Below are positions 960-46,441 of a stretch of 64,000 nt of DNA, in pieces (within the stretch, counting starts at the first letter, position 1; each line of letters opens with the position of its first letter). The stretch is from a virus: IMG/VR virus record IMGVR_UViG_3300037088_000232, one strand, 5' to 3'. The translations under genes were made by a program, and so were the position numbers. Under the pieces are notes generated by a model, which saw only the letters and a list, made by a program, of their open reading frames with translations, made no database searches and was not told where the DNA came from.

Positions 960-2393
960 TCTCATGTAGATAGTAGTAAACAAGTAAAATTAAGATATTA
1001 TAAGTGGCCCAATGCCACCAAATATATTACCTGTGATGACGATGACCATCAAAGAGATGGAAAGTATGTTACATGGGATGGGCGATCAGTTAAATCAGTT
1101 CCCACCAAAAATCCAAATCGTTATTCCGTCTATGATTACATAGATGAATTACCTCAGGAAGAACAGGATATTATTTTTCAATATAATGAACCTGATATAT
1201 TTTTCATCGATATTGAAAATGAAATTATAGACAAAAAACCAGCTCCTCATTTAGCTGAAAGTGCCATACAATCCATTTCCATTGTCAATAAAGATAAAGT
1301 TCTGGTAATGGGGACTCAGGAATTATCTGAAGTTATTTCCAAATCCATTGAAGAAGATATAAATAATTATTTCGCCAAATTCGGAACTATTTATCAGTTC
1401 AAATATATTCATTTCAAAAGTGAATATGAAATGTTATTGAATTTCTTTGTGAAATTTGTTCCGAGAATGCCAGTTTTAACTGGTTGGAATTTTACCGAAT
1501 ATGACTGGGTTTTTCTTGTTAATAGAGCTCGTAAACTTGGAATAGATCCGAGTGTAGCTTCAGTAACAAAATTACTGAGAGAACCTTGGGATATGGAAAA
1601 AAAGACATATTGTGAATTACCAGCTCATCGAATGGTTGTTGACTATATGGAACTATTCAAAAAATGGGATACATCCATTAGAGTTAAGGAATCAATTAGT
1701 CTGGACTTCGTATCTGATAATGTTCTTGGAGTTAAGAAAGTTAATTATGAAGGAAGTCTTAAAACCTTATATAATACAGATTATAAGAAATTCGTTTATT
1801 ATAACGCGGTTGACTCCGTACTTGTTCAAAAGATTCATGAAAAGACAAAATTGATCAATATTTTATATGGTATTTCAACTCTTTCGAGAGTAAAAATTGG
1901 GGATTCATACAGTACCTTACCTGTAACAGAGGGAATTTTAAGAAGAAAACTGAAAAAAGAGAAGAATGTTGTTCTTTGTAGATTAGACCGTTCTGAAAAT
2001 GTAGTGGATGTTGAAGGTGTTTTGGGTGGTTATGTTAAAGAACCAGTTAAAGGTATGAGCCATTGGACACCCTGTTATGACTTTAAGAGTTTGTATCCAA
2101 CCTGTATGATAATGTTCAATATCTCTGTCGATAGTTATAAAGGTATCATTTCGAGTGATAAGAAATATGCCATATTCAATAATAAGAAAATTGAAATTGA
2201 ACCAACCGACATTGTTCTATTAAATGGGGCTGTATTCCGTAATGAAATTGGAGTAGTAAATCAGGTTATGAGCCTTATCTATGACGATAGACAGAAATAT
2301 AAAAAATTCATGTTAAAAGATGGGGCTGTTCTGGATGAATTAAAAAGTGAGGAATCTAAATTGATTGCTGAATTGGTTGGGGAATTTGAGTGA
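960..2393 (+). CDS. family-B DNA polymerase (T4 gp43-like) internal fragment: 3'-5' exonuclease domain through motif A; no initiator codon, no motif B/C
   Basis: Exo I FIDIENE (1203-1220), Exo II LTGWNFTEYDWVFLVNRARKLG, Exo III YYNAVDSVLVQKI, motif A DFKSLYPTCMIMFNISV, pre-motif-B DDRQKYKK then stop; frame open from 960 but first ATG is 1308, after exo I. Confidence 0.85.
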   Translation, partial: SHVDSSKQVKLRYYKWPNATKYITCDDDDHQRDGKYVTWDGRSVKSVPTKNPNRYSVYDYIDELPQEEQDIIFQYNEPDIFFIDIENEIIDKKPAPHLAESAIQSISIVNKDKVLVMGTQELSEVISKSIEEDINNYFAKFGTIYQFKYIHFKSEYEMLLNFFVKFVPRMPVLTGWNFTEYDWVFLVNRARKLGIDPSVASVTKLLREPWDMEKKTYCELPAHRMVVDYMELFKKWDTSIRVKESISLDFVSDNVLGVKKVNYEGSLKTLYNTDYKKFVYYNAVDSVLVQKIHEKTKLINILYGISTLSRVKIGDSYSTLPVTEGILRRKLKKEKNVVLCRLDRSENVVDVEGVLGGYVKEPVKGMSHWTPCYDFKSLYPTCMIMFNISVDSYKGIISSDKKYAIFNNKKIEIEPTDIVLLNGAVFRNEIGVVNQVMSLIYDDRQKYKKFMLKDGAVLDELKSEESKLIAELVGEFE

Positions 2394-2617
2394 CCAGTTT
2401 ATAGTCTTTCAACATATTATCGAAAGAATGTATTATACCAGTAGTCATACTTATCACCAGCTTAGATTGTTTTTCTCTTAACCACACAAAAATATTGAAT
2501 GTTTGTTTTACTTCAACGGTACAACAAGCATTCATAACCTTTTCTACAAAATCATCAGATGGACAACATTCTGGTGTTTTTTGAAAAAGGTTTTTTAAAA
2601 AATCATCATTTAGATCT

Positions 2618-2893
2618 TTATTTTTCATCATCAAAGGTTGCTTCTTTTGGGGTTGTTGGTCTTAAAGAATATATATTAATCGAATCAAGAGAATCCTCAT
2701 CAAAGGTGGCTTCCAATGGTACTATTGGCTTCAATATATCAATGTTGATTTCTTTTGTTATAGTAGTGGTAATAATTACTTCTGATTTTGTTGATTTGTC
2801 TCCATCAGCTAATGTTATACTTCCAATAAACATTAACATCAAAAATACTATAATTTTTTTCATAATCTCTTTTTTGTTTTGTCCATTTGACAT
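2618..2893 (-). CDS. small secreted protein (N-terminal signal peptide)
   Basis: MKKIIVFLMLMFIGSITLADG hydrophobic leader; 91 aa. Confidence 0.45.
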   Translation of the reverse strand: MSNGQNKKEIMKKIIVFLMLMFIGSITLADGDKSTKSEVIITTTITKEINIDILKPIVPLEATFDEDSLDSINIYSLRPTTPKEATFDDEK

Positions 2894-2948
2894 CAGATAT
2901 TCAAAAAGGTTACAAAAATTTTTAATATATAAAGAAAAAATCTTTCTT

Positions 2949-4268
2949 ATGTTGTATTCATTCTCAGAATTTTTGAATGAAAGATATGGTCAATTCAATG
3001 ATTCGATAAAATTTACTGATTGGTCAGAATTTAAGGAAAAGTTAAAAAATTCCATAAAAACTGGTTTTAATACTGAAGAAGAACTCGTTAATTTGATGGG
3101 AATGGACTTTAATAAATATACTCAAATCAGAGAGAATATGATTCTTAATTGGAAGGATTCAGTTAGTAAATCTTTATTACATACTGTCGCTCAGATAGGA
3201 CAAAAAATTCCAAAGGAGGGAGCTAGCATTTTTAAAGATCTCAGACAACAAACAGCTATGTTAATTGTTGCCTCTGGTGGATTAGAAAGTAGAAATGTGT
3301 TTGGTGATGTGAATTCTACAAATGGACTTAGATTTTTAAATAGATTTACGGATCTTGAAAAAATTAAAAATACAAACCCTAAAAGTACTAAATATGATTT
3401 TGATCTCCACAAGGATGTCGTGAAAAGATGGGTTGATTTTGATGGTATTCCAGCCTATACGATAACAAATAATTTATCAATTAAGAAAGTTAATAACATA
3501 GTTCAATATGTTTGGTTATATTCCTTCTATCACCATTATAAAATAAAAAAAGATAAACCGAAACTTCCAAAGAATTTATATAGGGGAATAAGGGTATTCC
3601 AAGGATTAAAAGGTAAAGAAATTGAACAATTAAGAAAAGTATCACAAGAACAAGCTAAAGGGATTGATGATAAACATACTACTTGGGTCAAAACTTTCAT
3701 TGATAATTTGATTCAATTTATCGTTGAGAAAGGAATGTCAAAAATATCGGATGGAAAATTCTTATCTTTTACCGAATCAAGGGATATAGCTGCTTATTTC
3801 GCAAATAAAGAGGGTATTATTTTGAGAGTTGATCCGACTAAGGTAAAAATAGTCACTTCACCAAAGACAGAAGAATTTTTTGGAGAAGTAGATTATGTTT
3901 CTGGTAAAAAAGAAAAAGAATATATCATAGAAATTCCAGTAAATTACAAATTTACCATAGATGATATAGAAATTGTGGATGGCGATTATTGGATCGGAGC
4001 AAATAGTCCATTATCGGTTCAATTCTTCGATCATGATGATAAAAAGGCCAACTATGAATTAGATGGAATAAGAATAGAATCTCAGTATGTTTGGAGAAGT
4101 AATACAAGTGGTGGAATCGTATTTAATAATTTAGATTCGAAAGGATATGAAAGTTGGGGAATATCGAGGCGTGAATTTAAGAAGAAATTCAATGTAGATC
4201 CTATGCCAACCGAAGAAAATTTAAATAGAATAAAAGATTTTAAGATATCTAATACTAAAAGATGGTAA
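2949..4268 (+). CDS. CTS-tagged ADP-ribosyltransferase, R-S-E type (T4 Alt-like)
   Basis: Start chosen at internal ATG giving N-terminus MLYSFSEFLNE (T4 CTS-like). Upstream part of listed ORF 2559-4268 is antisense of two minus-strand ORFs. Motifs LYRGIRV (Arg), FLSFTES (S-x-S), EKEYIIEIP (E-x-E + hydrophobics) with Alt-like spacing. Confidence 0.55.
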   Translation: MLYSFSEFLNERYGQFNDSIKFTDWSEFKEKLKNSIKTGFNTEEELVNLMGMDFNKYTQIRENMILNWKDSVSKSLLHTVAQIGQKIPKEGASIFKDLRQQTAMLIVASGGLESRNVFGDVNSTNGLRFLNRFTDLEKIKNTNPKSTKYDFDLHKDVVKRWVDFDGIPAYTITNNLSIKKVNNIVQYVWLYSFYHHYKIKKDKPKLPKNLYRGIRVFQGLKGKEIEQLRKVSQEQAKGIDDKHTTWVKTFIDNLIQFIVEKGMSKISDGKFLSFTESRDIAAYFANKEGIILRVDPTKVKIVTSPKTEEFFGEVDYVSGKKEKEYIIEIPVNYKFTIDDIEIVDGDYWIGANSPLSVQFFDHDDKKANYELDGIRIESQYVWRSNTSGGIVFNNLDSKGYESWGISRREFKKKFNVDPMPTEENLNRIKDFKISNTKRW

Positions 4269-4618
4269 ATTCTATGAAATATCTAAAAATGTTTGAAGAA
4301 TATAAAAATTTAAATCCTAATTTTTATAAATGGTTTGATGAAAGTAAAGTCGTAGATGAAAATAATCATCCATTAATTGCTTATCACGGAACAGGTGAAT
4401 ATTATAAATCAACTATTGATAAAATATTTGATTGTAGTAAAGGGTGTTGGTTTACTGAATCATTAAAGGTTGCTAAAGTTTTTACACACAATAAATTAAA
4501 TCCGAAAATTTTAAAAGTTTATTTGAAAATAGAAAATCCAAAGATTTATGAAACTTGGTTTGATTATATGAATGATGTTAAGGAATGGAAGAGTGAGATA
4601 ATTAATATAAAGAATTAG
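4262..4618 (+). CDS. small ART-fold-like protein (H-G-T / WFTES motifs), possibly truncated
   Basis: IAYHGTGEYY ... CWFTESLKVA; 118 aa; stop/start overlap with upstream gene. Confidence 0.35.
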   Translation: MVNSMKYLKMFEEYKNLNPNFYKWFDESKVVDENNHPLIAYHGTGEYYKSTIDKIFDCSKGCWFTESLKVAKVFTHNKLNPKILKVYLKIENPKIYETWFDYMNDVKEWKSEIINIKN

Positions 4619-4703
4619 AAAAGATTTTATTATGTTTTACCCGAATTATATTAAGAATATTAAAAATGATGGAAGTTGGGATATAGATGATTCTAATATT
4701 TAT

Positions 4704-5438
4704 TCATAACAAATGATAATAATCCATATTATAAAATTCTTCATCATTTTCAATTCCTATGAAATTTCTTCCTGTATTCTTAGCTGCTATACAGGTTGTT
4801 CCAATACCACAAGTGTTATCCAGTACTAATTCTCCGGGATTCGTAAAGGTCAATATTAACCATTCACACAATTTTACTGGTTTTTGGGTTCTATGTACAG
4901 GTGGCCAAGGTTTTTCGAAGTTTAAAACACTTTTCGGATATTTTTGTGTAGTTCCTTTTCTTATATCTGGAATTTTCGAATCAAAATAACCATAATTTTG
5001 ATTTTTTCCTTCTTTGAAAGAAAAAGCGTTACCTTTTGAATGCTGAGGTGTCCCCTCTGTAAATTGTGGATGGTAAGTTGGTTGTTTTTTATAGAAAATC
5101 AAAATTTGCTCATGGTTTCTAAGTATTTGTTTTTTTGCATTTAAAAATCCAGTGACCCTTTCTCCTTTTTTCCATATCAAATCATAACGATACATTTTCT
5201 CATTAGATAAAGCAAGTTTGTGAGCGAACATTCCCTGAGCGAATAAAGCAATACATCCATTCGGTTTTATAATTCGATTGTAGTTCTTCCAGAGTAATTC
5301 AAATGGGATCATAATATCTTTCTTGTTTCTTGTGACTCCGTATGGTAAATCAGCAAGAATCATATCAACAATATGAGTATCAATATCAGGCATTAGATGT
5401 AAACAATTATCGAAATATATTTTATTTATATCAATCAT
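4704..5438 (-). CDS. DNA N6-adenine/N4-cytosine methyltransferase, beta class
   Basis: Motif IV DLPYG precedes motif I DNTCGIGTT (FxGxG) near C-terminus; 244 aa. Confidence 0.8.
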   Translation of the reverse strand: MIDINKIYFDNCLHLMPDIDTHIVDMILADLPYGVTRNKKDIMIPFELLWKNYNRIIKPNGCIALFAQGMFAHKLALSNEKMYRYDLIWKKGERVTGFLNAKKQILRNHEQILIFYKKQPTYHPQFTEGTPQHSKGNAFSFKEGKNQNYGYFDSKIPDIRKGTTQKYPKSVLNFEKPWPPVHRTQKPVKLCEWLILTFTNPGELVLDNTCGIGTTCIAAKNTGRNFIGIENDEEFYNMDYYHLL

Positions 5439-5829
5439 TTAACAACGATTTTAATTTTTGAGATCTAATGAAATTTTGTATTTTTTCTGATATTTCATGA
5501 CCCGAATAACAATGAGATACGAATCCATCTGGTCTATTCATAAAGTCAGTTGTAATTATATAACAAGAATTATACATTTCAGTACCAGCTGCACTTTTTG
5601 TTCCAATTCCGATTATTGTTTCCCCGAATTTTGGTTTTCTATAATTAAATTTCCATGAATCCCAATTCATTTCTTCACAATATTTTTTATTTTCTTGAGA
5701 TAAAAATTCCAAAATTCCATCAATATCTTTTTCATTGGTTTCAAATAAATTACACCAAATATGATTTTTAATATCTGGTTCAACCGATTTCCCAATCAAA
5801 AATTTATCTAAAAAATTCATATCAATCAT
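5431..5829 (-). CDS. member of tandem paralog family (C-terminal KL..IL.D motif)
   Basis: N-term MIDMNFLDKFLIGKSVE, C-term SQKLKSLLND; overlaps neighbours by 8 nt. Confidence 0.5.
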   Translation of the reverse strand: MIDMNFLDKFLIGKSVEPDIKNHIWCNLFETNEKDIDGILEFLSQENKKYCEEMNWDSWKFNYRKPKFGETIIGIGTKSAAGTEMYNSCYIITTDFMNRPDGFVSHCYSGHEISEKIQNFIRSQKLKSLLND

Positions 5830-6193
5830 TTAATATTTTTTCTAATTTTTTGTATCTAATATGATTTTGTAGTTTTGCAACTAAATCAATTCCACGAAAA
5901 ACACGAGTTGCTAATCCACTAACATTAATATTTTCCAGATTAAACTCAGTTGTAAATAATTCACAAGAATGTTCGTGCCATAGTCTAATTCCTAAAATCG
6001 TTTCTCCGAATAGTGGTTTATAAGGTGGTGGGATATAGTCAAAATCCATTTCACGAGAATATCTTTGATTCTCTTCATTTAAAAATTCTAAGGTTTCATC
6101 ATCAATCTCAATAATATCATTTCTAATATTATTAACATCCTGAATCATAGATTCAGATTTTCCGATCAAAAATTTATCCAGGAAATCCATCAT
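5822..6193 (-). CDS. member of tandem paralog family
   Basis: N-term MMDFLDKFLIGKSE, C-term RYKKLEKILND; paralog of 5431-5829. Confidence 0.5.
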   Translation of the reverse strand: MMDFLDKFLIGKSESMIQDVNNIRNDIIEIDDETLEFLNEENQRYSREMDFDYIPPPYKPLFGETILGIRLWHEHSCELFTTEFNLENINVSGLATRVFRGIDLVAKLQNHIRYKKLEKILND

Positions 6194-6509
6194 TCAAAAT
6201 ATCATTGAGTTTTTCAGATCTTATGTAATTTATTAATCTGGCTTCTAATATATCTGTGTCATTTCCAAAAAACACTTTAAATGTATTATTTTGTCTTGAA
6301 TTATATAAATCCACGAATTCTGATAAATAATTATAATTATATTCGGATTTTCCAGTTATAATAGTTATTTTATTCTTGGATATTCCTTTCTTAAATAAAT
6401 TATCTAAAAAACTTAAACCTGTCTCAATAGATTCGGATTTTCTTTTATCCAATTCAAAATCATGATATTCTTTCCAGAAATTATCCCAATTAAATTCATT
6501 TTCATTCAT
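6174..6509 (-). CDS. member of tandem paralog family
   Basis: N-term NEFNWDNFW, C-term RSEKLNDILNDGFPG. Confidence 0.5.
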   Translation of the reverse strand: MNENEFNWDNFWKEYHDFELDKRKSESIETGLSFLDNLFKKGISKNKITIITGKSEYNYNYLSEFVDLYNSRQNNTFKVFFGNDTDILEARLINYIRSEKLNDILNDGFPG

Positions 6510-6777
6510 CTAAAATAGTTTTAAGTGTATTTGATCTGTCTTTGTTTTTTGTTATTGCTTCTGACATAACAAAATAATCATCTAAATCCCAATCAAATAT
6601 TGTAAAATTATTTTTTATTAAATTTGAACTTAAAAGATCAGGACGATTTTTTCCTTTTATACAATCATCCCATAAGTCCCAATTTAGATTATACATATTC
6701 TTATAATATTCTTTATTTATTCGTCTTAGTCTATGTATACTATTTATCAAATTGGGTTTTTTTATCATCCTTTTCAT
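6502..6777 (-). CDS. member of tandem paralog family
   Basis: NWDLWDD motif, C-term DRSNTLKTILDE. Confidence 0.45.
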   Translation of the reverse strand: MKRMIKKPNLINSIHRLRRINKEYYKNMYNLNWDLWDDCIKGKNRPDLLSSNLIKNNFTIFDWDLDDYFVMSEAITKNKDRSNTLKTILDE

Positions 6778-6937
6778 CTAAAATGATTTGAAGTTTATCT
6801 GACCTATCTTCATTGATAATTCTTGATACTATTGAATCAGTAAAAGTATTAATGTCATTTTTTTCTATTAACTGAGGATTGTGATAAGCATCGTTAAGTT
6901 CTTTTTCGATCTCTGTCCAAAATTCTTTTGAAATCAT
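6740..6937 (-). CDS. member of tandem paralog family (short)
   Basis: C-term DRSDKLQIILDE; 65 aa. Confidence 0.4.
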   Translation of the reverse strand: MISKEFWTEIEKELNDAYHNPQLIEKNDINTFTDSIVSRIINEDRSDKLQIILDEKDDKKTQFDK

Positions 6938-7518
6938 CTGACTCTTTCTAACTTATCTTTATCAAATATTGCTTTTCTTCCAAAAACAGCCAATCCGAGT
7001 TGATATGTTTCAAGTCCATCATCAATGTCATGCCATCTGTTCATAAATTCAGATTTTGGTATATATCCGACATTAAATAAAGACGGATCACTAATTAATA
7101 AAAGTTTATCTGTGTATCCAATTACAGCCACAAAATGTCCATCTCCCCAAGTTTCTTTATATTTTCTTTTGAATTTAAAATCAGTTCCCCAAGCTTGTAT
7201 CAAAACAATTACTGGAATGTTCTTATCCACATATTTAATCAGATCATCAATTGTCATATCTTGTTGTAATTCAGTCTTTAGATCATGATAATGAAAAAAT
7301 TTCACTATGTTTTTTACAAGTGTTCCTTCTTCTTCGTTAGTTTTCAAAATTTCAACTAAATCAGATTCACGAAAATTTTCACCATAAAATTCCATTGTTC
7401 TTTCTACTATATCACAACCACAAGTATATGAATAGGCTTGTCTTGTTATTGGAAAATCAATAATTTTGATATTTTCATCATCTTCGAAATCCAATTCATC
7501 AATGTATAAATTTGTCAT
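6934..7518 (-). CDS. papain-like cysteine peptidase, C39-like
   Basis: Cys motif YSYTCGCDIVERTMEFYG, His motif GHFVAVIGY, then ISDPS; 194 aa. Confidence 0.55.
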   Translation of the reverse strand: MTNLYIDELDFEDDENIKIIDFPITRQAYSYTCGCDIVERTMEFYGENFRESDLVEILKTNEEEGTLVKNIVKFFHYHDLKTELQQDMTIDDLIKYVDKNIPVIVLIQAWGTDFKFKRKYKETWGDGHFVAVIGYTDKLLLISDPSLFNVGYIPKSEFMNRWHDIDDGLETYQLGLAVFGRKAIFDKDKLERVR

Positions 7519-7525
7519 AATGTGA

Positions 7526-8410
7526 TTATATATTAAATATTTTCTTGAATGGTTTTAAATTTCCATCTGGATTGTGTTCTTTATATGAGTTATGATCATC
7601 ATAGATAGCGAATACTATCTTATGAAAAACCCCTTTATATTCAGTATCTAATAATTCTTTAAAGATTGAAGCTATCTGTTCGGGTGGATTTCCATAAGCA
7701 CCACAACCAAAAGCGGAAAGAACTAAATCTCTATGTCCATTCTCATGAGCGAATTGAAAAATCCTTCTTATTTTTTGTTTGGTTTTGGAGAAGTCATTTT
7801 CATTCATTCTTCTATTCTTCAATTCTGGTCTTTTTATTGCAGGTACAGATATAAAAGCACATTTGAATGGATGGGAGAGTAAATAATATCCATTTTTTTC
7901 AGAACCACGAAAAACGGTTATATCTTTTGAATAGATTGCACCATAATCACCCAATGGATATTTGTATTTAGAATTTTGTTCTATTCCATACTGATGAGCA
8001 TAATCAACATATTGATAAAGAGATTTAAATAAATTGGTTCTTCTGAATAAATTTTCTTCCTGTGCCGATGAACCATTTATTACACCACCACCGGGATTCT
8101 TATAACTGGCCATATTTAAAACTATCGGATTTTCCATCGTTCTTGCTACATCCAAACAATCAGCATCCATGACCAATATTTCAGTTTTAAAGTCATTTAT
8201 CCCCGTTGGGTCATAAATTGGGCCATTTTCAGTAAATAAAGAGTTCTGGCACACTTTCGAGTTGTCAATGATAACTTCTCCATCCGAGAAGTATTTTCCA
8301 TTCTTAACGATTTTAATCGTGTTTTCCCAAACATCAATCAAAAGTTCTTTTCTTCTGTTAAGATTTGAAGTTTTATAGGTTTGTGCCCATTTTATTGCAT
8401 CCCATTCCAT
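7526..8410 (-). CDS. bacterial-type poly(ADP-ribose) glycohydrolase (macrodomain, DUF2263/TIGR02452 family)
   Basis: PARG signature NPGGGVINGSSAQEENLFRR (GGG-x6-8-QEE) and LVLSAFGCGAYGNPPEQIA. Confidence 0.75.
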   Translation of the reverse strand: MEWDAIKWAQTYKTSNLNRRKELLIDVWENTIKIVKNGKYFSDGEVIIDNSKVCQNSLFTENGPIYDPTGINDFKTEILVMDADCLDVARTMENPIVLNMASYKNPGGGVINGSSAQEENLFRRTNLFKSLYQYVDYAHQYGIEQNSKYKYPLGDYGAIYSKDITVFRGSEKNGYYLLSHPFKCAFISVPAIKRPELKNRRMNENDFSKTKQKIRRIFQFAHENGHRDLVLSAFGCGAYGNPPEQIASIFKELLDTEYKGVFHKIVFAIYDDHNSYKEHNPDGNLKPFKKIFNI

Positions 8411-8428
8411 CCGTGTAGTATTTCTTTT

Positions 8429-8902
8429 TTAAATAATTATTTCATCTCTTATTAATATGGATATAGCGTCTTTCAGAGCTTTACCATCGAATCCTTTAGT
8501 CTGATCTATTTCCACCATATTGTCTATTTGTTCAACTAACATATCAATATGATGGTCATCTAAGATAACATAATTCGTAACATATTTTAGTTCATTTTCA
8601 CCATCGAATGAATTAAACTTATTTAACCATTCTTTAATTTCTAATCCTTTGGGAACTTTAATGGTTTCATCTTCTTTAATCGAAAAATTCGGAGTGATTC
8701 CAAGTATTTCACCTTTAACACCATTATCATATAAAATTTTTGTAACATCGTGTTTTCTTTTCCAATCTGAGGTTACAACTATTTTAGCCCCCGTTTTACG
8801 AATAAGTTCATTGAGATTGTCAATATTTCTCATATTGAATCCCTTGGCACTGGCTGGAATTAACACACCATCAAAATCCAAAAATATAATTTTGTATGTC
8901 AT
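8429..8902 (-). CDS. small HAD-superfamily phosphatase (resembles HAD domain of RNA-repair 'Swiss-army-knife' proteins)
   Basis: Motif I FLDFDGVL at N-terminus, 157 aa, VILDDHH motif III/IV-like. Confidence 0.6.
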   Translation of the reverse strand: MTYKIIFLDFDGVLIPASAKGFNMRNIDNLNELIRKTGAKIVVTSDWKRKHDVTKILYDNGVKGEILGITPNFSIKEDETIKVPKGLEIKEWLNKFNSFDGENELKYVTNYVILDDHHIDMLVEQIDNMVEIDQTKGFDGKALKDAISILIRDEIII

Positions 8903-8904
8903 TC

Positions 8905-9282
8905 TTAAAGAAAGGGAATATCATCATGAGAATTATCCTCAATCGATTCAATAGCCCTTATTCTTTTTTCTTCATCTTCAAGATTCTTTAAATCCTTTTC
9001 TAACCCAATAAGATCATGAACAGATCTTGACAGTGAACTAGCTTTTTTATGAAGTTCATAATCTTTTATGACTTGATCACTTGTACCATCTTTCCAACCC
9101 AATCCATACTTTATACCCCATTCCAAATCTTCTTTTCTCCAACCATTCACATCTTGAAGTGAAAGACTTGTAGATATTCCAATAGTAGTACCTACATCAA
9201 AAAGTGTAGATTCTTCTTTCAACATACTTAAATGATGTTGTAAAATCTCAATAAGTTCTTTAATTGTTATTTCTTTAGCCAT
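8905..9282 (-). CDS. hypothetical protein
   Basis: 125-aa ORF between HAD and ASCH genes with stop/start overlaps. Confidence 0.45.
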   Translation of the reverse strand: MAKEITIKELIEILQHHLSMLKEESTLFDVGTTIGISTSLSLQDVNGWRKEDLEWGIKYGLGWKDGTSDQVIKDYELHKKASSLSRSVHDLIGLEKDLKNLEDEEKRIRAIESIEDNSHDDIPFL

Positions 9283-9740
9283 TCTCTTAGATCCTTTTCA
9301 TAATTTATATACTCAATTTTGTCAAAAGTTGTCTTATCCAATTTAGACCAACCTTGTTTTCCCCTGAATGGAAATGGTTTTATTTCTCTAACATCCTCAT
9401 AAACATGGCACCACAAATCAGGATTGTATAAAGCGAAACAATTATCTTCATCTGTTTTTTGCATTGGTCTACAATCAACTAATCTTCCAATGGCTATAGC
9501 CAATCCACAAAGATCATCTACACAACCAAGATCACAATGTAAAGTGTCAAATATTCTATACAATTGATACTGTCCACAAATATCATTTAATTCCTTTAAT
9601 GAATATGACTTCTTAGAAGCACATATCAATACTTCACCCCTGTATTTAGTTTTCCATACTCTGGTTTCAATTTTCCCACATAACATCAGACTAGCAAATG
9701 GTTGTTTCCAACTTAGTGCTAAAATATCATTTTCTGTCAT
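9267..9740 (-). CDS. ASCH-domain (PUA-like) protein
   Basis: LSWKQPFASLMLCGKIETRVW matches ASCH GxKxxExR core. Confidence 0.55.
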   Translation of the reverse strand: MTENDILALSWKQPFASLMLCGKIETRVWKTKYRGEVLICASKKSYSLKELNDICGQYQLYRIFDTLHCDLGCVDDLCGLAIAIGRLVDCRPMQKTDEDNCFALYNPDLWCHVYEDVREIKPFPFRGKQGWSKLDKTTFDKIEYINYEKDLREWLKK

Positions 9741-9745
9741 AAATA

Positions 9746-10291
9746 TTATAATTTTTTGAATAATTCTCGTTTATGTACCAGATGTTTCGGATATGGTGCA
9801 ACTTGACTGTGTTCATCATACCCCAATTTATTTTTCGATCCACCAGTTAATGGAAATTCAATCAAATAATCCTGTTCCCATATTTCACTTATTCGACCAT
9901 AATTGTTTGGAAAGGAGTTCTTCGGGGCAAATGACTGAAACATTAATAGACCACTATCCATTACCTGAACAGGATCTCCGATTTTTAATTCTTCTTTTAC
10001 TGATTTTTCTGGTTTAGTTTTTGTTTTAATATTTTTATCAGGAAGAATACCAAGATAGAAGTATTTATCATCTTTTTGTTTTACTGTTTCGTAATAGAAT
10101 ACTCCATCCCTTTCATCCCATGCTTCACCACATTGACCAATAATTTCATCATCATAATTAGGCGGACAGTATTCACACAATATATGTTCATAAATTTCAT
10201 AATCTATTTCGTCATTTTCGGATAAGAATTCACTCAAATTGAGTTCGGATTTTTCCCAATCTTGATATGTTTTTATATTTCTTTTTTTCAT
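9746..10291 (-). CDS. hypothetical protein
   Basis: 181-aa ORF. Confidence 0.4.
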   Translation of the reverse strand: MKKRNIKTYQDWEKSELNLSEFLSENDEIDYEIYEHILCEYCPPNYDDEIIGQCGEAWDERDGVFYYETVKQKDDKYFYLGILPDKNIKTKTKPEKSVKEELKIGDPVQVMDSGLLMFQSFAPKNSFPNNYGRISEIWEQDYLIEFPLTGGSKNKLGYDEHSQVAPYPKHLVHKRELFKKL

Positions 10292-10298
10292 AATTATT

Positions 10299-10829
10299 TC
10301 ATTTTAACTTATAATCATCATAACCTTCTTTTTCATAATCAAAAATTACATAATAACTACCAGTTCTATAAAAAATATCTACTTGATTACCCATCCTATA
10401 TTCTTCAAATGGTTCTACCCAACAATAACGAAATAAAGCATTTTTGAATGTGAAATCATAATGTGTGGGATGAATGATTCCTTTATATTGAAATCTGAAT
10501 TCTGGATAATTATTACTTTTCGGTTTACCAAAATCTCCATATTGATTTATCTGACATTCCTTAGCATATTTTTCAATTTCATCAAAATTATCATTAAAAA
10601 TTTTATCTTCTTCTAAATGTGGGTACATGAATGGAAGTCCATTTTTTGAATATTGATTTCTACTATTATCCAGATATTGATTTCTACTATTATCCAAAAA
10701 TTCATTTTTAAATAAAAGTAATTCTTGGGCTTTTCTAAATCCTCTTAGAAACCCATTGACTTCATATATATCAACACAGTCTGGATGACCAGCCATTCTT
10801 CTTATTTCATCATCATCATAAATTTTCAT
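10299..10829 (-). CDS. hypothetical protein carrying an in-frame perfect tandem duplication (LDNSRNQY x2)
   Basis: 176-aa ORF; 24-nt direct repeat at 10651-10696. Confidence 0.4.
   Translation of the reverse strand: MKIYDDDEIRRMAGHPDCVDIYEVNGFLRGFRKAQELLLFKNEFLDNSRNQYLDNSRNQYSKNGLPFMYPHLEEDKIFNDNFDEIEKYAKECQINQYGDFGKPKSNNYPEFRFQYKGIIHPTHYDFTFKNALFRYCWVEPFEEYRMGNQVDIFYRTGSYYVIFDYEKEGYDDYKLK
10651..10696. repeat. perfect 24-nt tandem duplication inside CDS
   Basis: tattgatttctactattatcca at 10651-10672, gat spacer, then repeated at 10675-10696. Confidence 0.8.
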
Positions 10830-10833
10830 AATT

Positions 10834-11418
10834 TTAATTCTTTAGAATTATATTTTTTATATCAATAAATGTTCCACCACCAAAAGCAACTTGAATTCCA
10901 GATTCACTTTTTAATTCCCAATTCATATAATATTCACCATCCAAACAAAATCTACCTATTTTTTCAAAATAATCAGGGGGGTCGAATGAATTATGATATG
11001 TAGTTTTATCCTCAACGGTCAATATAGTATTATCATTTTTTCTTAATACCGAATAAATTCTAAAATCTCCGATATTATTGGAAATTATATTATTAAATTC
11101 ATCAGTACCTTTACTAATCACTATTTTTTCGTTTGTATAGTTCTTTTTTTCTTTTACATTCCCGAAAAATCCTTTTTTGGTAGAAATCCATTCATGTTTT
11201 TTATTTGTATAAAAACTTAAAATTTCAAAGTTCGGATTGTTCTGACTATTTAAATAAGATACTTTCTTTTTTAATATTTGTTGAAAAATATCATACGGTT
11301 TTACCCTCTCTGGAACATAGTACGAATATTCCTTTAAAAATTCTACTAAAATTTCTGGTAAAGAATTATTTGTTAATAATTCATTTAATTCATCTAATTT
11401 TTTATTTTCCATCTTCAA
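10834..11418 (-). CDS. hypothetical protein
   Basis: 194-aa ORF. Confidence 0.4.
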   Translation of the reverse strand: MKMENKKLDELNELLTNNSLPEILVEFLKEYSYYVPERVKPYDIFQQILKKKVSYLNSQNNPNFEILSFYTNKKHEWISTKKGFFGNVKEKKNYTNEKIVISKGTDEFNNIISNNIGDFRIYSVLRKNDNTILTVEDKTTYHNSFDPPDYFEKIGRFCLDGEYYMNWELKSESGIQVAFGGGTFIDIKNIILKN

Positions 11419-11423
11419 TTATA

Positions 11424-11633
11424 TTAAAATTTTTCAAATATCAATTTAGCAGTAGGATAATAGTTAATTGTACCTTCCTCGTTATCCTCAGTAATAGAAT
11501 CCTGTTCTATTGATAGTTTAACTGTCTTATAACCATTAGAAAGAGCATCAAGAATTATAATCTGTAAATCTCGAATATCAATACTTTCTTGGTCAAAATC
11601 GATAATCCATTTATTATCTAATAATTCTCTCAT
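11424..11633 (-). CDS. hypothetical small protein
   Basis: 69-aa ORF tightly spaced between neighbours. Confidence 0.35.
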   Translation of the reverse strand: MRELLDNKWIIDFDQESIDIRDLQIIILDALSNGYKTVKLSIEQDSITEDNEEGTINYYPTAKLIFEKF

Positions 11634-11647
11634 ATTTCATATTTTAT

Positions 11648-12415
11648 TTAACAAGCGTAACAGTATGTACAATGATGCTTACAGGTTTTAAATGTTCCTA
11701 TATCTCCACTTTGGATACATCCACATTCAGTTCTTTGATTTTTATCCTTTGTACTCGTTATCCATCTTTGTTTTCCACATATTCGTTCAATTAATTCAGG
11801 ATCTACACATTTATTATGTTCTATACCATCCAAATTAATTGATTCGGCACAGGTGGCTAATTTCAATCCCCAATCTTTATTGAATTCTATTAATTGTTTA
11901 GAAATTCTAATTTTAACATCATCAGGAACTTCTTTGAATTTATTACCCAATTTTTTATAGGGATCAATATAACTAAATACAAGTTTTTCTGTATAATTAT
12001 GTATTTCATTCCCAATTTTTTCAATTCTTCTTAAAAGTTTTTCTTCTGTTATTTTATCAGAAATAATAATCGGGTCAAATCTCCATATTACACACTCCCT
12101 ACCTATTTTATCTGATAATTCCTTGAAAGTTTCAATTCTTTCTAATATCGGTGGGACTTCTAATTCATATTCTGGATATCCATTTAATGTAAATTGGAAA
12201 TAATATTTGAATGGTAAAGAATCCAGATATTTCATAAAAGGTCTTGGATTCTTCGACCAGAATACAGCCAATTTCACTTTTTCGAAAGATATGGTATATG
12301 TTGACCAAGGATTTACCATATTAACATACCCCTTTTTTATTTTCTCCATGAACCAATCGCCACGGAATGCGGGAATATCTTCTCTACGACTTACTGAAAT
12401 TATATGAGGCTCCAT
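11648..12415 (-). CDS. DUF1848-like protein with C-terminal Cys cluster (putative metal/Fe-S binding)
   Basis: N-term HIISVSRREDIPAF resembles DUF1848 start; C-term CGCIQSGD...CKHHCTYCYAC. Confidence 0.4.
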   Translation of the reverse strand: MEPHIISVSRREDIPAFRGDWFMEKIKKGYVNMVNPWSTYTISFEKVKLAVFWSKNPRPFMKYLDSLPFKYYFQFTLNGYPEYELEVPPILERIETFKELSDKIGRECVIWRFDPIIISDKITEEKLLRRIEKIGNEIHNYTEKLVFSYIDPYKKLGNKFKEVPDDVKIRISKQLIEFNKDWGLKLATCAESINLDGIEHNKCVDPELIERICGKQRWITSTKDKNQRTECGCIQSGDIGTFKTCKHHCTYCYAC

Positions 12416-12420
12416 ATTTT

Positions 12421-12606
12421 TTAAATAAAATGTTCACCACAAGCATACTGTTCAAATATGTGGGTTTTCCAAGGGTCTTTCGGTTTTTTACCATAGACTC
12501 TTTCTCTTGTTGTTTTACCACGACCACAAAGAACACATTCTGTCTCAGTGATTATATAATAGTATTTTTTAGATTTTTTCTTCATCTGATTTTGAATTTT
12601 TACCAA
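12421..12606 (-). CDS. small zinc-ribbon protein
   Basis: CVLCGRG...CGEH Cys pairs; 61 aa. Confidence 0.35.
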   Translation of the reverse strand: MVKIQNQMKKKSKKYYYIITETECVLCGRGKTTRERVYGKKPKDPWKTHIFEQYACGEHFI

Positions 12607-12714
12607 AAATCTTTTTGTGAATTCTGAATATATCGATTATACAATAAACGGCATAAATACCAATTATTACCATTATAGAAAAAATAAGTGTTTGCATTTT
12701 ATTTCATTTAATTT

Positions 12715-12930
12715 TTACCATTTCCATCTTTGACCTTCGAGAGATGGGTCACCCGCGTCAATGGCCATATCTCTTGTTATAATGACATATTTTTCTTCTT
12801 CCTGTTCTCTACAACACTCACCCTGAGTTAGAGTTGCATTGTCCAATTCCGATTCACTTATTTCACTACAATTATTCAATGGTACACCATGTTCATCGGT
12901 AGGTGTTCCACAATAACCACATCTATACAT
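12715..12930 (-). CDS. small Cys-rich protein
   Basis: CGYCG...C..GECC; 71 aa. Confidence 0.3.
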   Translation of the reverse strand: MYRCGYCGTPTDEHGVPLNNCSEISESELDNATLTQGECCREQEEEKYVIITRDMAIDAGDPSLEGQRWKW

Positions 12931-13372
12931 TTTTCAGAATATTTTCAACTTCTTTTATATCATAAGTTATTGGTAATTTTCCAACTTCTTGATGATTAAA
13001 ACGAATATCATCTAAAAAGTTTTCAACTGGTGAATCAACAAAAATCTGAATAAAAGAGGCTGGTTTTGTTTTTTCAAAAAAGGAATATTGTGCTATCTTA
13101 GTAACCTGTAACCATTCCTTAGGAACTTTTGGATGTTCCTTGAACCAGTTATTTATATAATCTTTCAGTTCTGACAAATCATTGATTTTCAAATAATCAA
13201 TATCTGGTTCTTTCCAAGTATCATAATCAGGTGGGAGTTCGCTGTTTGGTTTGAATCCTACTATATCACTTCCTATTGTTTTAGAACTTATATTCTTTAC
13301 TTTTGGAAGCAAGGATACATCTTCAACAACGATTTCTCCATTCTGACCAATATCTATACTTTTTTCAAACAT
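12923..13372 (-). CDS. hypothetical protein
   Basis: 149-aa ORF, overlapping stop/start with neighbours. Confidence 0.4.
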   Translation of the reverse strand: MFEKSIDIGQNGEIVVEDVSLLPKVKNISSKTIGSDIVGFKPNSELPPDYDTWKEPDIDYLKINDLSELKDYINNWFKEHPKVPKEWLQVTKIAQYSFFEKTKPASFIQIFVDSPVENFLDDIRFNHQEVGKLPITYDIKEVENILKNV

Positions 13373-23187: not shown

Positions 23188-23688
23188 TTATTCCATTTCC
23201 AAAACATTCGATGGAATTAATACATTTTTGTTTATGATAACCCAAGCGATATTATCTCCTTTACCATTCAAATCATCTGGAATTTTAACTACATCATACC
23301 CCTCATTCTTTGCATGTGATACGATAAAATCACATTTATGGGTTTTTGACTGAATATCATATTGAAAAAGTCTACCAGAAGTAATATAATTTTCTAAATC
23401 TGTATCTTCTAATTCATCACCATAAATAATTTCATTTTTCACCATCCAACTATATAAATCATATCCGTCACTTAAATCTAAAATTGAGGCTCCATTTTTT
23501 AATTTAAAGGTTAATATATTATTTCCATAATCTTTGGCTACTGAACGAGAGGTACTGGTGTAAATACCTTTTAATCTCTTATCTGGTTCTATTTCACTCT
23601 CAGTTATATTTTCATTCGTTCCATGATATAAAGTAACTAAAAACAGTTCTGATGATTGTTCCTCGAATATTTTGAATTTCTTAATCAT
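23188..23688 (-). CDS. ART-fold-like protein (H-G-T / S-T-S / E-hydrophobic motifs)
   Basis: LYHGTNE ... IYTSTSRS ... KNEIIYGD; weak CTS-like N-term MIKKFKIFEE. Confidence 0.4.
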   Translation of the reverse strand: MIKKFKIFEEQSSELFLVTLYHGTNENITESEIEPDKRLKGIYTSTSRSVAKDYGNNILTFKLKNGASILDLSDGYDLYSWMVKNEIIYGDELEDTDLENYITSGRLFQYDIQSKTHKCDFIVSHAKNEGYDVVKIPDDLNGKGDNIAWVIINKNVLIPSNVLEME

Positions 23689-46007: not shown

Positions 46008-46441
46008 TTCCTGTTTTCATTAAAGTTTTCAAATAGTTTCCAGATATTTTTTGCACCTGTGGTGTTTTGTGTATGTATAAGAATTGTAGGACAATCCAAA
46101 TCGTTATTAAGTAAATAATTAATTAACCATTTTGCACATTCATGTCCTGTTCCCTCTACTACGGTATAATCAATCCAACCAGTAAATATTGTGAATGTTC
46201 TGTAATGATAATAATGTTCATCTTTAAGATCGTGATCAAAAGAAATCATTTCTGGTAATCCTCTTTTTTCTATCATCTCAACAAACTGTGGAAAACTTCT
46301 GACGATTACCCAATCAAGATCTTTATATCTTTTATCTCTTGTCAAATCATAAGCACTGTCTAATTCGAAATCAACGGGAACATCTGTACCCCCATTAAAC
46401 GGAAACCTATCATCATCGAGAAAAAGATTATACATCTGCAT
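46004..46441 (-). CDS. hypothetical protein, receiver-(REC)-like pattern
   Basis: LFLDDDR ... DWVIVRSF ... EMISFDHDL ... ILIHTQN; weak. Confidence 0.25.
   Translation of the reverse strand: MQMYNLFLDDDRFPFNGGTDVPVDFELDSAYDLTRDKRYKDLDWVIVRSFPQFVEMIEKRGLPEMISFDHDLKDEHYYHYRTFTIFTGWIDYTVVEGTGHECAKWLINYLLNNDLDCPTILIHTQNTTGAKNIWKLFENFNENRK

Follow-up and report, generated by a model that had tools for sequence, protein, structure and literature searches.

ADP-ribosylation of RNA and DNA has only recently been recognized as a bacterial weapon and an anti-phage mechanism, as exemplified by RhsP2, CmdTAC and DarT. The erasers of such modifications differ in the linkages they address: bacterial PARGs take ADP-ribose off the 2'-OH of RNA and off phosphate ends such as the 5'-phosphate and protect cells against an RNA-targeting ART toxin (PMC11833690), while DarG/TARG1-like macrodomains and NADARs clear it from thymidine and guanosine. 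In Deinococcus radiodurans, the operon DRB0100-DRB0099-DRB0098 encodes a ligase, a PARG and an HD-phosphatase/polynucleotide kinase, which are proposed to repair ADP-ribose-blocked ends (PMC11833690). In jumbo phages, standalone HADs of the SAK family are predicted to act in RNA repair as linear phosphatases (PMC7824862), and a phage neighborhood combining a sirtuin with a SAK-HAD has already been described (PMC9503650).

Here, we analyzed a locus in a 64,000-nucleotide stretch of viral DNA (the window) that encodes an ASCH-like protein, a near-orphan protein, a SAK-type HAD and a bacterial-type PARG. As in the D. radiodurans operon, a bacterial-type PARG and a predicted end-processing phosphomonoesterase are encoded on one strand. 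However, the phage phosphatase belongs to the HAD_SAK_2 rather than the HD type, no ligase or polynucleotide kinase flanks the genes, and most phage relatives carry an unrelated gene for a protein of 121-138 aa between HAD and PARG. We regard the likeness to the Deinococcus operon as an analogy, not as orthology. The HAD belongs to the same family (PF18143) and has the same ~160-aa standalone architecture as the jumbo-phage SAK HADs and, like the SAK-HAD of the sirtuin neighborhood, resides beside an NAD/ADP-ribose-handling enzyme, with a PARG macrodomain as the partner instead of a sirtuin. An earlier note on this DNA considered the gene combination undescribed in phage. While the exact four-gene combination was not found in the literature searched, its components and its theme are known from the SAK-HADs, the sirtuin neighborhood and the Deinococcus operon cited above.

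Gene organization of the locus

Four ORFs on the minus strand fill positions 7526-9740 and are transcribed in the order ASCH, near-orphan, HAD, PARG, within a much longer array:

9740..9267, minus strand: ASCH-like ORF, 157 aa, first of the four to be transcribed
9282..8905, minus strand: near-orphan ORF, 125 aa
8902..8429, minus strand: HAD ORF, 157 aa
8410..7526, minus strand: PARG ORF, 294 aa
6934..7518, minus strand: C39-like cysteine peptidase (Peptidase_C39_2, 7.3e-12), 7 nt downstream of PARG
4704-5438, minus strand: N6/N4 DNA methylase (N6_N4_Mtase, 1.3e-29), an array anchor conserved in the clade
11648-12415, minus strand: DUF1848 protein (DUF1848, 1.1e-84), an array anchor conserved in the clade
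4704..13372, minus strand: co-directional array of at least 20 uninterrupted ORFs, including the four, with all junctions between -38 and +18 nt

The first 16 nt of the near-orphan gene coincide with the end of the ASCH gene, and gaps of 2 nt and 18 nt separate near-orphan from HAD and HAD from PARG, respectively. The earlier note's description of four co-directional genes with near-zero spacing or overlap was thus accurate, while its gene order was inverted: all four are transcribed from the minus strand, which puts PARG last rather than first. Equally tight spacing extends over at least 20 genes, no minus-strand terminator-like site was detected close to the four genes, and promoter-like sites were not enriched over shuffled sequence (95 vs 108.7 +/- 11.1). 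Nothing in the sequence therefore delimits the four genes as a unit, and the four-gene "cassette" is an arbitrary slice of the array. More generally, tight spacing within a long co-directional phage array is no evidence of an operon-level functional unit. The C39 peptidase gene follows PARG in one other clade member only (contig SJ5PGvIC), and PADLOC defense models matched neither the four genes nor this peptidase.

The PARG protein is identical on a 736,551-bp contig, and the phage measures ~737 kb. A megablast search with positions 6900-10300 against 50,697 phage records returned no match; the phage has no close cultured relative. A tRNA scan of the window found none. The locus is part of the densely packed, PolB-proximal auxiliary arm of the megaphage genome.

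Domain assignments of the four proteins

The PARG matches PF10021 at 1.5e-26 (94 bits, cut-off 23.5) and TIGR02452 at 2.7e-43 (148.4 bits, cut-off 50; residues 27-275), and residues 203-249 yield a weak Macro-domain match. The family signature, GGG-X6-8-QEE with two catalytic glutamates, is intact in the form GGG-x7-QEE (G107-G108-G109, VINGSSA, Q117-E118-E119). Its GGG and QEE residues are invariant across 26 homologs and are aligned to the GGG...QEE of Thermomonospora curvata PARG (TcPARG); likewise, the diphosphate loop A233-F234-G235-C236-G237 is invariant in the family and aligns with the TcPARG GCG. The closest solved structures, those of TcPARG (3sig; 2e-24) and D. radiodurans DRB0099 (5zdf; 3e-21), share the catalytic loop and the macrodomain diphosphate loop with the phage-encoded protein, although the alignment spans the catalytic core only (residues 94-273 align directly to TcPARG). 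A Pfam scan of the ~125-aa N-terminal extension seen in some PARG homologs gave nothing informative. Judged by its sequence, the phage protein bears every hallmark of an active bacterial-type PARG (macrodomain, DUF2263/TIGR02452), as had been recognized from the raw letters. Because such activities have been demonstrated for Deinococcus and Streptomyces relatives, we infer that the enzyme would remove ADP-ribose held by ribose-ribose O-glycosidic bonds or on terminal phosphates; candidate substrates are poly-ADP-ribose, 2'-OH-ADP-ribosylated RNA and ADP-ribose-capped 5'-phosphate ends.

The HAD matches PF18143 (HAD_SAK_2) at 1.6e-22 (80.8 bits, cut-off 27.5) and phrog_1818 at 3.7e-20. Motif I (D9-F-D11-G-V) and motif IV (D115-D116) are present, and D9, D11, G12, V13, D115 and D116 are invariant. 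These matches mark it as a standalone HAD_SAK_2 ('Swiss Army Knife' RNA-repair) protein with the catalytic aspartates expected of an active Mg-dependent phosphomonoesterase; the likeness to SAK RNA-repair HAD domains noticed earlier was correct. In an AF2 model (pLDDT 90), the protein appears to lack a cap domain. Weak Foldseek matches of this model (TM 0.39-0.55, best E 8.7e-4) were obtained only with cap-less HADs (AQ2171, lipin/Pah, MDP-1, Scp1, Pnkp1 and T4 PNKP) and do not set phosphatases of polynucleotides apart from those of proteins or lipids. Macromolecules are the typical substrates of capless HADs, and the phage enzyme would strip terminal phosphates from polynucleotide ends. According to precomputed Pfam annotation, no RNA ligase, polynucleotide kinase or Tpt1 is encoded in the annotated part of the window or flanks HAD-PARG, and no ligase or kinase family occurs within 6 kb of PARG. 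Likewise, no RNA-repair partner of the HAD, a cyclic phosphodiesterase included, was found next to the gene or elsewhere in the annotated window sequence. Among the families listed for other phages, an RNA ligase is adjacent to HAD_SAK_2 in just 2 of 41 lineages.

Neither the Pfam nor the NCBIfam ASCH models matched the first protein of the four, the Pfam model not even at E <= 10; in its family, only two of 30 members reached Pfam ASCH, at 6.6e-4. The ASCH assignment therefore rests on profile-versus-PDB and structure comparison. A profile of the 30-sequence family matches the ASCH domain of human TRIP4/ASC-1 over its full length (6.4e-8), and the AF2 model (pLDDT 94) retrieved TRIP4 ASCH as the top Foldseek match (5e-9, TM 0.61-0.68), followed by EOLA1 and ZmASCH, with ASCH proteins making up all of the top 20. 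On this profile and model evidence, the protein has the ASCH beta-barrel fold, as the earlier note had proposed. It belongs to the highly conserved phage family phrog_3193 (3.8e-18), with 275 homologs that are 50-73% identical.

The phage protein shares the beta-barrel with TRIP4/ASC-1, EOLA1, ZmASCH, TthASCH and YqfB, being best matched by TRIP4 ASCH, and its own conserved Lys, Glu and Arg are located on the signature strand. The canonical signature is G-x-K-x-x-E-x-R (bioRxiv 10.64898/2026.02.27.708502); here it reads G22-K23-I-E25-T26-R27, with K-I-E-T-R invariant, so that the distance from Lys to Glu is one residue shorter than the canonical one, and in the HMMER alignment the canonical Lys of TRIP4 falls into an insertion relative to the phage family. 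This strongly conserved phage ASCH family, with its shortened signature motif, escapes the Pfam model. Further invariant residues of the family are C40, C111, H112 and Y114, and in the literature searched no such Cys, Cys-His and Tyr are described for characterized ASCH proteins. In other phages, the neighbors of the ASCH gene are replication-module genes, e.g. those for an N6_N4 MTase, an SNF2 helicase and VRR-NUC. The best explanation is that ASCH is a widespread phage replication-module protein, acting as a nucleic-acid binder or as an N4-acylcytidine-type amidohydrolase.

The near-orphan protein yielded just seven matches among 1.84 billion representatives, and its only Pfam match, DUF7900 at 0.012, is below the cut-off. 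The ORF is a real gene, with positionally matching orthologs, 69% and 41% identical, in two related phage lineages, where they follow ASCH and precede HAD.

Conservation within and beyond the megaphage clade

The order ASCH...HAD...PARG recurs in ~12 related megaphage lineages, in which PARG is 61-76% and HAD 48-71% identical. It is embedded in a wider synteny comprising the MTase, a 439/444-aa gene and PolB throughout, and DUF1848 in most lineages. Based on crude ORF calling in the fetched loci, HAD is located upstream of PARG in all clade lineages, with 0, 1, 2 or 4 genes in between (four unrelated ones in L283), and ASCH is found 0-8 genes upstream of HAD (8 in L286) and is absent from L010. 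The near-orphan gene was found in three clade lineages and is absent from the others. Genes inserted between members of the trio are small, unrelated and variable in number. Most relatives carry p123, the conserved 121-138-aa gene between HAD and PARG, which this phage lacks; neither Pfam scans of p123 and of the other genes that separate HAD from PARG nor a profile search of p123 against the PDB gave anything informative. Only HAD-(p123)-PARG stays compact in every relative. In L286, the most divergent one, the upstream flank is remodeled and the MTase inverted, and HAD-p123-PARG is still contiguous.

Outside the clade, we scanned viral and bacterial neighborhoods, taking the best 80 loci with 6-8 kb on each side. 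Among 77 PARG-seeded viral loci, none contained ASCH and one contained a HAD, 4.7 kb from PARG (L088). The best 80 viral loci seeded with HAD_SAK_2, all of them from outside the megaphage clade, contained no PARG within 8 kb and one ASCH (L172). The 22 ASCH-seeded viral loci contained neither PARG nor HAD, the best 80 bacterial PARG loci neither HAD nor ASCH, and the complete trio occurred in none of these four sets. Pairs outside the clade are thus single, chance-level cases. The immediate neighbors of PARG are heterogeneous in 32 other phage and 49 bacterial lineages, as judged from the top 25 neighbor families (25 of 51 for phage PARG). Metallophos genes flank PARG in four loci (L042, L064, L087 and L088), which raised the idea of a recurrent pairing between PARG and a phosphoesterase. 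Their density is unremarkable: 2.4 per 100 kb around PARG compared to 1.9 around unrelated HAD_SAK_2 loci in other phages, so no specific enrichment can be claimed.

These observations bear on the possibility that the four genes constitute a dedicated operon, in which ASCH would recognize modified nucleic acid, PARG would remove ADP-ribose and HAD would trim phosphate, reversing DarT/ART-type defenses. Such a unit could account for the tight spacing and overlap and for the order ASCH > near-orphan > HAD > PARG, which is kept wherever the genes occur in the clade; in addition, ASCH domains bind nucleic acids, and TRIP4 ASCH-dsDNA structures rank among the top fold matches of the phage protein. 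We nevertheless consider it very unlikely. Equal spacing is a property of the whole array, ASCH can be missing or far from HAD and the near-orphan gene is confined to three lineages, the genes do not co-occur beyond the clade, where ASCH keeps company with replication genes, and PADLOC recognizes none of the four. Moreover, PARG-type enzymes are not known to erase base ADP-ribosylation of the DarT type (PMC11833690), which argues against the reversal of DarT envisaged in the earlier note. The notion of one operon-like functional cassette thus found no independent support, given an order restricted to the clade, variable insertions and the lack of outside co-occurrence. As gene order is kept among relatives, even if adjacency varies, and as the domain assignments stand, the underlying idea is not refuted either when measured against the refuting conditions set in the earlier note.

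Because the genes travel together only in one related phage group, they appear to be ordinary syntenic neighbors rather than a new four-gene system. On balance, we lean towards the view that the locus contains ordinary accessory enzymes that are neighbors by shared descent, with HAD and PARG perhaps working together and with ASCH and the near-orphan protein as passengers. The latter two are most likely functionally independent.

Possible roles of PARG and HAD during infection

If HAD and PARG do work together, our best guess is that they share one clean-up of ADP-ribosylated or phosphorylated RNA and DNA ends during infection. The damage could originate from host ART or nuclease defenses, or arise as a side effect of the ART-PolyVal enzymes that the phage itself encodes. 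A role in cleaning such nucleic-acid ends is plausible by analogy to the D. radiodurans PARG operon. However, the HAD-PARG linkage is seen within one clade with conserved wider synteny and therefore may reflect inheritance alone, and the up to four unrelated genes that separate HAD from PARG (L283) count against tight coupling. A stronger version, in which HAD-(p123)-PARG would be a phage module that de-ADP-ribosylates and heals nucleic-acid ends against host ART or nuclease damage, and hence the first PARG-type phage counter-defense, possibly with ASCH as an upstream reader or eraser, is a long shot that draws on the same analogy.

Alternatively, PARG might be an eraser for the phage's own ART-PolyVal paralogs, limiting self-modification or timing host take-over, with HAD, ASCH and the near-orphan protein unrelated to this task. 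As the earlier note had it, the phage carries several ARTs: ART-PolyVal matches are found at three sites in the window (~4212-4709 on the plus strand, 23188-23688 and 59399-60955 on the minus strand), amounting to at least three genes of this type, one of them ~3 kb from PARG. ART-PolyVal genes are also close to the locus in the relatives L011 and x2MM9GfG, and writer-eraser pairs are general in ADP-ribosylation systems (PMC8120803). On the other hand, the PARG signature goes with ribose-ribose or phosphate-linked ADP-ribose and is not tied to Arg- or Asp/Glu-linked mono-ADP-ribose, the typical phage ART product (PMC8120803, PMC11833690). In addition, no ART is among the families listed (25 of 51) for the genes immediately next to PARG in 32 further phage lineages; looking for ART-PolyVal around other PARGs with jackhmmer recovered direct orthologs only and is too insensitive to count. 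Taken together, we view an own-ART eraser as a minority possibility, if a credible one.

PARG and HAD might also act on soluble NAD-derived molecules, such as ADP-ribose-1''-phosphate, ADP-ribose oligomers or ADPr immune signals, thereby quenching signaling or recycling NAD. Aravind and colleagues have proposed that the Macro and NADAR domains of jumbo phages break down soluble derivatives of ADPr, with Nudix or phosphatase steps acting next (PMC7824862, PMC9503650). Consistent with such a role, PARG neighbors in other phages include NUDIX (2), NAD synthase (1), Tpt1/KptA (1) and Metallophos (3-4 loci), bacterial PARG neighbors include TIR, ARH and Macro genes, and the window further encodes cREC_REC, PPK2, a CTP_transf_like + MazG protein and YqeY. 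These NAD-related window genes are, however, tens of kilobases away, the Metallophos density near PARG is no higher than near HAD_SAK_2, and the macromolecular substrates typical of capless HADs also speak against small soluble ones. We therefore rate this alternative as improbable and retain accessory enzymes inherited together, with a possible HAD-PARG cooperation, as the preferred reading.

Should PARG and HAD cooperate, megaphages would be equipped to erase ADP-ribosylation of RNA/DNA and would offer a natural test case for the in vivo role of bacterial-type PARGs. Irrespective of this, PARG-type macrodomains are a widespread feature of huge phages, with 139 confirmed viral stretches on contigs of mostly 100-500 kb. 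Homologs in the phage collection are almost confined to huge phages (Bacillus phage G, Lak phages and LR7565xx records), and the nearest cellular relatives of the phage PARG are encoded by MAGs of Spirochaetia, Bacteroidota and the like, at ~45-50% identity. The PARG-type gene of Bacillus phage G, gp114, has been left unannotated.

Layout of the four genes within the minus-strand array

The four genes studied here lie on the minus strand between 7526 and 9740. An earlier, sequence-only note had described them as an operon-like cassette, and its coordinates, co-directionality and near-zero spacing were accurate. It also had the members right, but the order in its title was reversed with respect to transcription, which runs from the ASCH-like gene through the unknown and the HAD to the PARG:

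9740..9267, minus strand: ASCH-like ORF, 157 aa
9282..8905, minus strand: near-orphan ORF, 125 aa
8902..8429, minus strand: HAD ORF, 157 aa
8410..7526, minus strand: PARG ORF, 294 aa

Following the genes 5' to 3', the ASCH-like and orphan ORFs overlap by 16 nt, while gaps of 2 nt (orphan/HAD) and 18 nt (HAD/PARG) separate the remainder. Equally tight junctions, all between -38 and +18 nt, run through an unbroken series of 20 or more minus-strand ORFs (4704 to 13372). A consensus scan revealed no minus-strand terminator-like site near the four genes, and promoter-like sites were not in excess (95, compared with 108.7 +/- 11.1 in shuffled sequence). Because neither spacing nor terminator-like or promoter signals set the four genes apart, the "cassette" is one segment of an extended co-directional array, not distinct from its surroundings. 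Other members of the array are:

5431-6937, minus strand: five tandem small ORFs (65, 91, 111, 123 and 132 aa), just downstream of the following gene
6934-7518, minus strand: C39-family cysteine peptidase, 7 nt downstream of PARG, recurring there in only one related contig
11648-12415, minus strand: DUF1848 protein

All five small ORFs share the C-terminal motif R-x-x-K/T-L-x-x-I/L-L-N/D-D/E (e.g. ...IRSQKLKSLLND, ...IRYKKLEKILND, ...RSDKLQIILDE), the two longest also share an N-terminal FLDKFLIGKS, and the group appears to be a paralogue family that has expanded locally. The DUF1848 protein (Pfam, 1.1e-84; PADLOC model 'RTasDUF1848', DRT-associated, 1.4e-40) represents a defence-associated family carried by a phage; it is 73-78% identical in the related contigs L010 and L011, where identity was measured, and serves as a conserved regional anchor in most lineages.

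Domain assignments and the source element

PARG matched PF10021 (microbial-type PARG catalytic domain; 1.5e-26) and TIGR02452 (2.7e-43), both far over the curated cut-offs. Across 26 aligned homologues, G107-G108-G109, Q117-E118-E119 (GGG-x7-QEE) and A233-F-G-C-G237 do not vary, and the catalytic loop can be matched position by position to those of the nearest solved structures, the PARGs of T. curvata (3sig, 2e-24) and D. radiodurans (5zdf, 3e-21). Assignment to the DUF2263/TIGR02452 family, proposed from a GGG-x-QEE signature, thus held in every sequence comparison made, and the protein carries, as far as sequence can tell, every catalytic feature expected of an active bacterial-type PARG. 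Some homologues of about 435 aa (P0027, P0034, P0081 and similar; 44-46% identical to the window protein) are extended at the N-terminus by a conserved segment of about 125 aa (MAVxLEFINLxxPIE...YPGGF...WYD...RDGAM), which had no match in the Pfam scan.

The HAD matched PF18143 (HAD_SAK_2; 1.6e-22) and phrog_1818, with invariant motifs I (D9-x-D11-G-V) and IV (D115-D116), bearing out the suspected resemblance to RNA-repair SAK proteins. Structural neighbours of its AF2 model (pLDDT 90) were weak and all cap-less HAD phosphatases (AQ2171, lipin/Pah, MDP-1, Scp1, bacterial Pnkp1 and T4 PNKP); all catalytic hallmarks predicted for an active cap-less HAD phosphomonoesterase are present. SAK-family HADs are predicted to remove terminal phosphates during RNA repair, and jumbo phages encode them as standalone proteins (PMC7824862). 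The window HAD is a member of HAD_SAK_2, but without the RNA-repair gene context behind the family's name. By their sequences, PARG and HAD are further members of known families (DUF2263/TIGR02452 and HAD_SAK_2, respectively).

The ASCH-like protein had no Pfam or NCBIfam match, and the ASCH call therefore needed testing. The protein belongs to a very conserved phage family, phrog_3193 (275 homologues, most 50-73% identical). A profile built from 30 family members matched human TRIP4/ASC-1 along the whole of its ASCH domain (6.4e-8), and the top 20 Foldseek matches of an AF2 model (pLDDT 94) were TRIP4 ASCH, EOLA1, ZmASCH and TthASCH (best 5e-9, TM 0.61-0.68). These matches establish the fold as ASCH. 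The call is thus sound as to fold, although the Pfam ASCH model misses the phage family and the signature is a variant: in G22-K23-I-E25-T26-R27 the Lys-Glu spacing is one residue shorter than in the canonical G-x-K-x-x-E-x-R with its catalytic Lys/Glu (bioRxiv 10.64898/2026.02.27.708502). Residues C40, R91, D97, C111-H112 and Y114, also invariant in the phage family alignment (A1), hint at a possible enzymatic or metal-binding site. The 125-aa protein is a near-orphan, with 7 matches among 1.84 billion representative proteins; since orthologues (69% and 41% identity) hold the same position in related phages, its ORF is a real gene.

A PARG identical to that of the window occurs on a metagenomic contig of 736,551 bp and a JGI contig of 597 kb. 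PARG relatives in the phage collection come almost only from huge phages (Bacillus phage G, Lak megaphages, LR7565xx records), and in IMG/VR 139 stretches were confirmed to encode PARG, most of them on contigs of 100-500 kb, alongside a few giant eukaryotic viruses. The window itself also encodes a family-B polymerase, SprT, UDG, cREC_REC, PTH2, YqeY, PPK2 and a CTP_transf_like + MazG protein. Because of the identical PARG on the 736,551-bp contig, the huge-phage relatives and this gene content, we infer that the source element is a megaphage. In the cultured Bacillus phage G (JN638751.1 66154-66984), the annotation of the PARG homologue gp114 (35% identity, 96% query coverage) goes no further than 'gp114'; 3.4 kb downstream of it is another macrodomain, gp122 ('Appr-1-p processing').

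Macro domains have been reported in 56% of jumbo phages (PMC9503650); the PARG type was singled out neither in that survey nor in a 2021 jumbo-phage survey, the word "PARG" occurring in neither text, and our literature search found no paper describing a phage PARG.

Conservation of the neighbourhood within and outside the clade

Within the clade, comprising about 12 distinct related lineages that share wider synteny with the window phage (PARG 61-76%, HAD 48-71% identical), the order (DUF1848)...ASCH...(orphan)...HAD...(p123)...PARG...MTase...PolB is kept in all lineages, ASCH being absent in L010, but adjacency is not:

Variation of the gene set across the clade (L-numbers, x2MM9GfG and SJ5PGvIC are related contigs)
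No gene between HAD and PARG: this phage, L010, L279
One gene: L014/15, L280, L281, L286/7, x2MM9GfG
Two genes: L011, SJ5PGvIC
Four genes: L283
ASCH: 0-8 genes upstream of HAD; absent in L010
Orphan: three lineages
C39 peptidase downstream of PARG: two lineages
p123: L011:7628-7999, L281:909-1274, L280:613-984, L286:10464-10832 and others

Most relatives have a conserved gene, p123 (121-138 aa), between HAD and PARG; this phage, L010 and L279 do not. The p123 product has invariant W, FTDD and GF residues (alignment A8) and an acidic, coiled-coil-like tail, and had no Pfam or PDB match. In L286, the most divergent relative, the upstream flank is remodelled, with DUF1848 lost, an MT-A70 methylase and a homing endonuclease inserted and MTase inverted, yet HAD-p123-PARG is still contiguous. 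The set has been inherited together within one phage clade.

Outside the clade, profiles built from our own alignments were run against all ORFs in each locus set. In the 8-kb flanks of 77 further viral PARG loci, which represent 32 lineages at 70% identity, there was no ASCH and one HAD, 4.7 kb away (L088). The best 80 HAD_SAK_2-bearing viral loci contained no PARG and one ASCH within 8 kb, 22 other ASCH-bearing viral loci neither PARG nor HAD within 8 kb, and the best 80 bacterial loci with the nearest cellular PARGs neither HAD nor ASCH within 6 kb. Conservation of the neighbourhood therefore holds inside one clade, for order only, and no association is seen beyond it. The earlier proposal is thus partly supported: the observation is confirmed and the domain identities are right, but a four-gene functional unit is not supported, since recurrence outside shared synteny was found in neither the viral nor the bacterial loci scanned. 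A full four-gene system, despite the order kept within the clade, appears highly improbable.

Immediate neighbours in the Pfam scan were heterogeneous for all three families. Those of PARG in other phages included, among the families listed, Metallophos (3 loci), NUDIX (2), YqeY (3), Tpt1, NAD synthase and HAD_2; bacterial PARGs had, among those listed, ARH (2), Macro (2), TIR (2) and restriction or helicase genes. HAD_SAK_2 neighbours in other phages included, among those listed, RNA ligase (2), NAPRTase, PPK2, NUDIX and replication genes; ASCH in other phages sat beside replication-module genes (N6_N4 methylase, SNF2 helicase, VRR-NUC, DUF1064, HTH regulators). Action of PARG and HAD on soluble NAD-derived metabolites or signals strikes us as quite improbable.

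Three calcineurin-like metallophosphoesterase genes flank PARG on both sides in two mutually related viral contigs (L087:6479-9645, L088:6504-9627), and one lies directly downstream of PARG, 16 and 5 nt away, in L042 and L064. As Metallophos density near PARG (2.4 per 100 kb) is indistinguishable from the background around unrelated HAD loci (1.9), we make no claim of a recurrent pairing.

Possible roles of PARG and HAD

For the window PARG and HAD, the activities considered are inferred from what has been published on related enzymes. PAR is hydrolysed by bacterial PARGs, which also take ADP-ribose off the 5'-phosphate termini of RNA and DNA; among hydrolase classes, they alone were found to undo 2'-OH ADP-ribosylation of RNA efficiently, and they shield cells against an ART toxin that targets RNA; in D. 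radiodurans, PARG shares an operon induced by damage with a ligase and an HD-phosphatase/polynucleotide kinase (PMC11833690). ADP-ribosylglycohydrolase and phosphatase pairings are known in host systems, and a phage neighbourhood of sirtuin and SAK-HAD is on record (PMC9503650). On balance, we lean towards accessory enzymes, each ordinary on its own, placed side by side by common descent, with HAD and PARG as the only plausibly cooperating pair. During infection this pair, accompanied by p123 in most relatives, would clean nucleic-acid ends that bear ADP-ribose or phosphate, and the ASCH protein and the orphan would ride along independently. That HAD-p123-PARG is a counter-measure against nucleic-acid ADP-ribosylation is a putative role to which we give little weight. 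Reversal of DarT modification, raised in the earlier note, is unlikely on known specificities, because base-linked ADP-ribose is handled by DarG/TARG1-like macrodomains and NADARs (PMC11833690).

The same note had pointed to many ARTs of the phage's own, and the window indeed encodes at least three ART-PolyVal-type ADP-ribosyltransferases:

about 4212-4709, plus strand
23188-23688, minus strand
59399-60955, minus strand

PARG might serve as an eraser for these enzymes; given what bacterial PARGs are known to act on, we consider this unlikely. The copy nearest PARG is a 118-aa ORF in the window (4262-4618); other assemblies of this phage give it 165-169 aa. A shift of about 62 nt between the window and contig L003 arises at some point from 1588 to 7526. 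The RNA-repair/NAD-themed genes (cREC_REC, PTH2 peptidyl-tRNA hydrolase, YqeY, PPK2, CTP_transf_like + MazG) and a split cation-efflux gene pair lie away from the four genes, at 46004-46441 (minus strand), about 33.5 kb, 42.2-42.7 kb, 40.7-41.5 kb and 29.4-30.3 kb.
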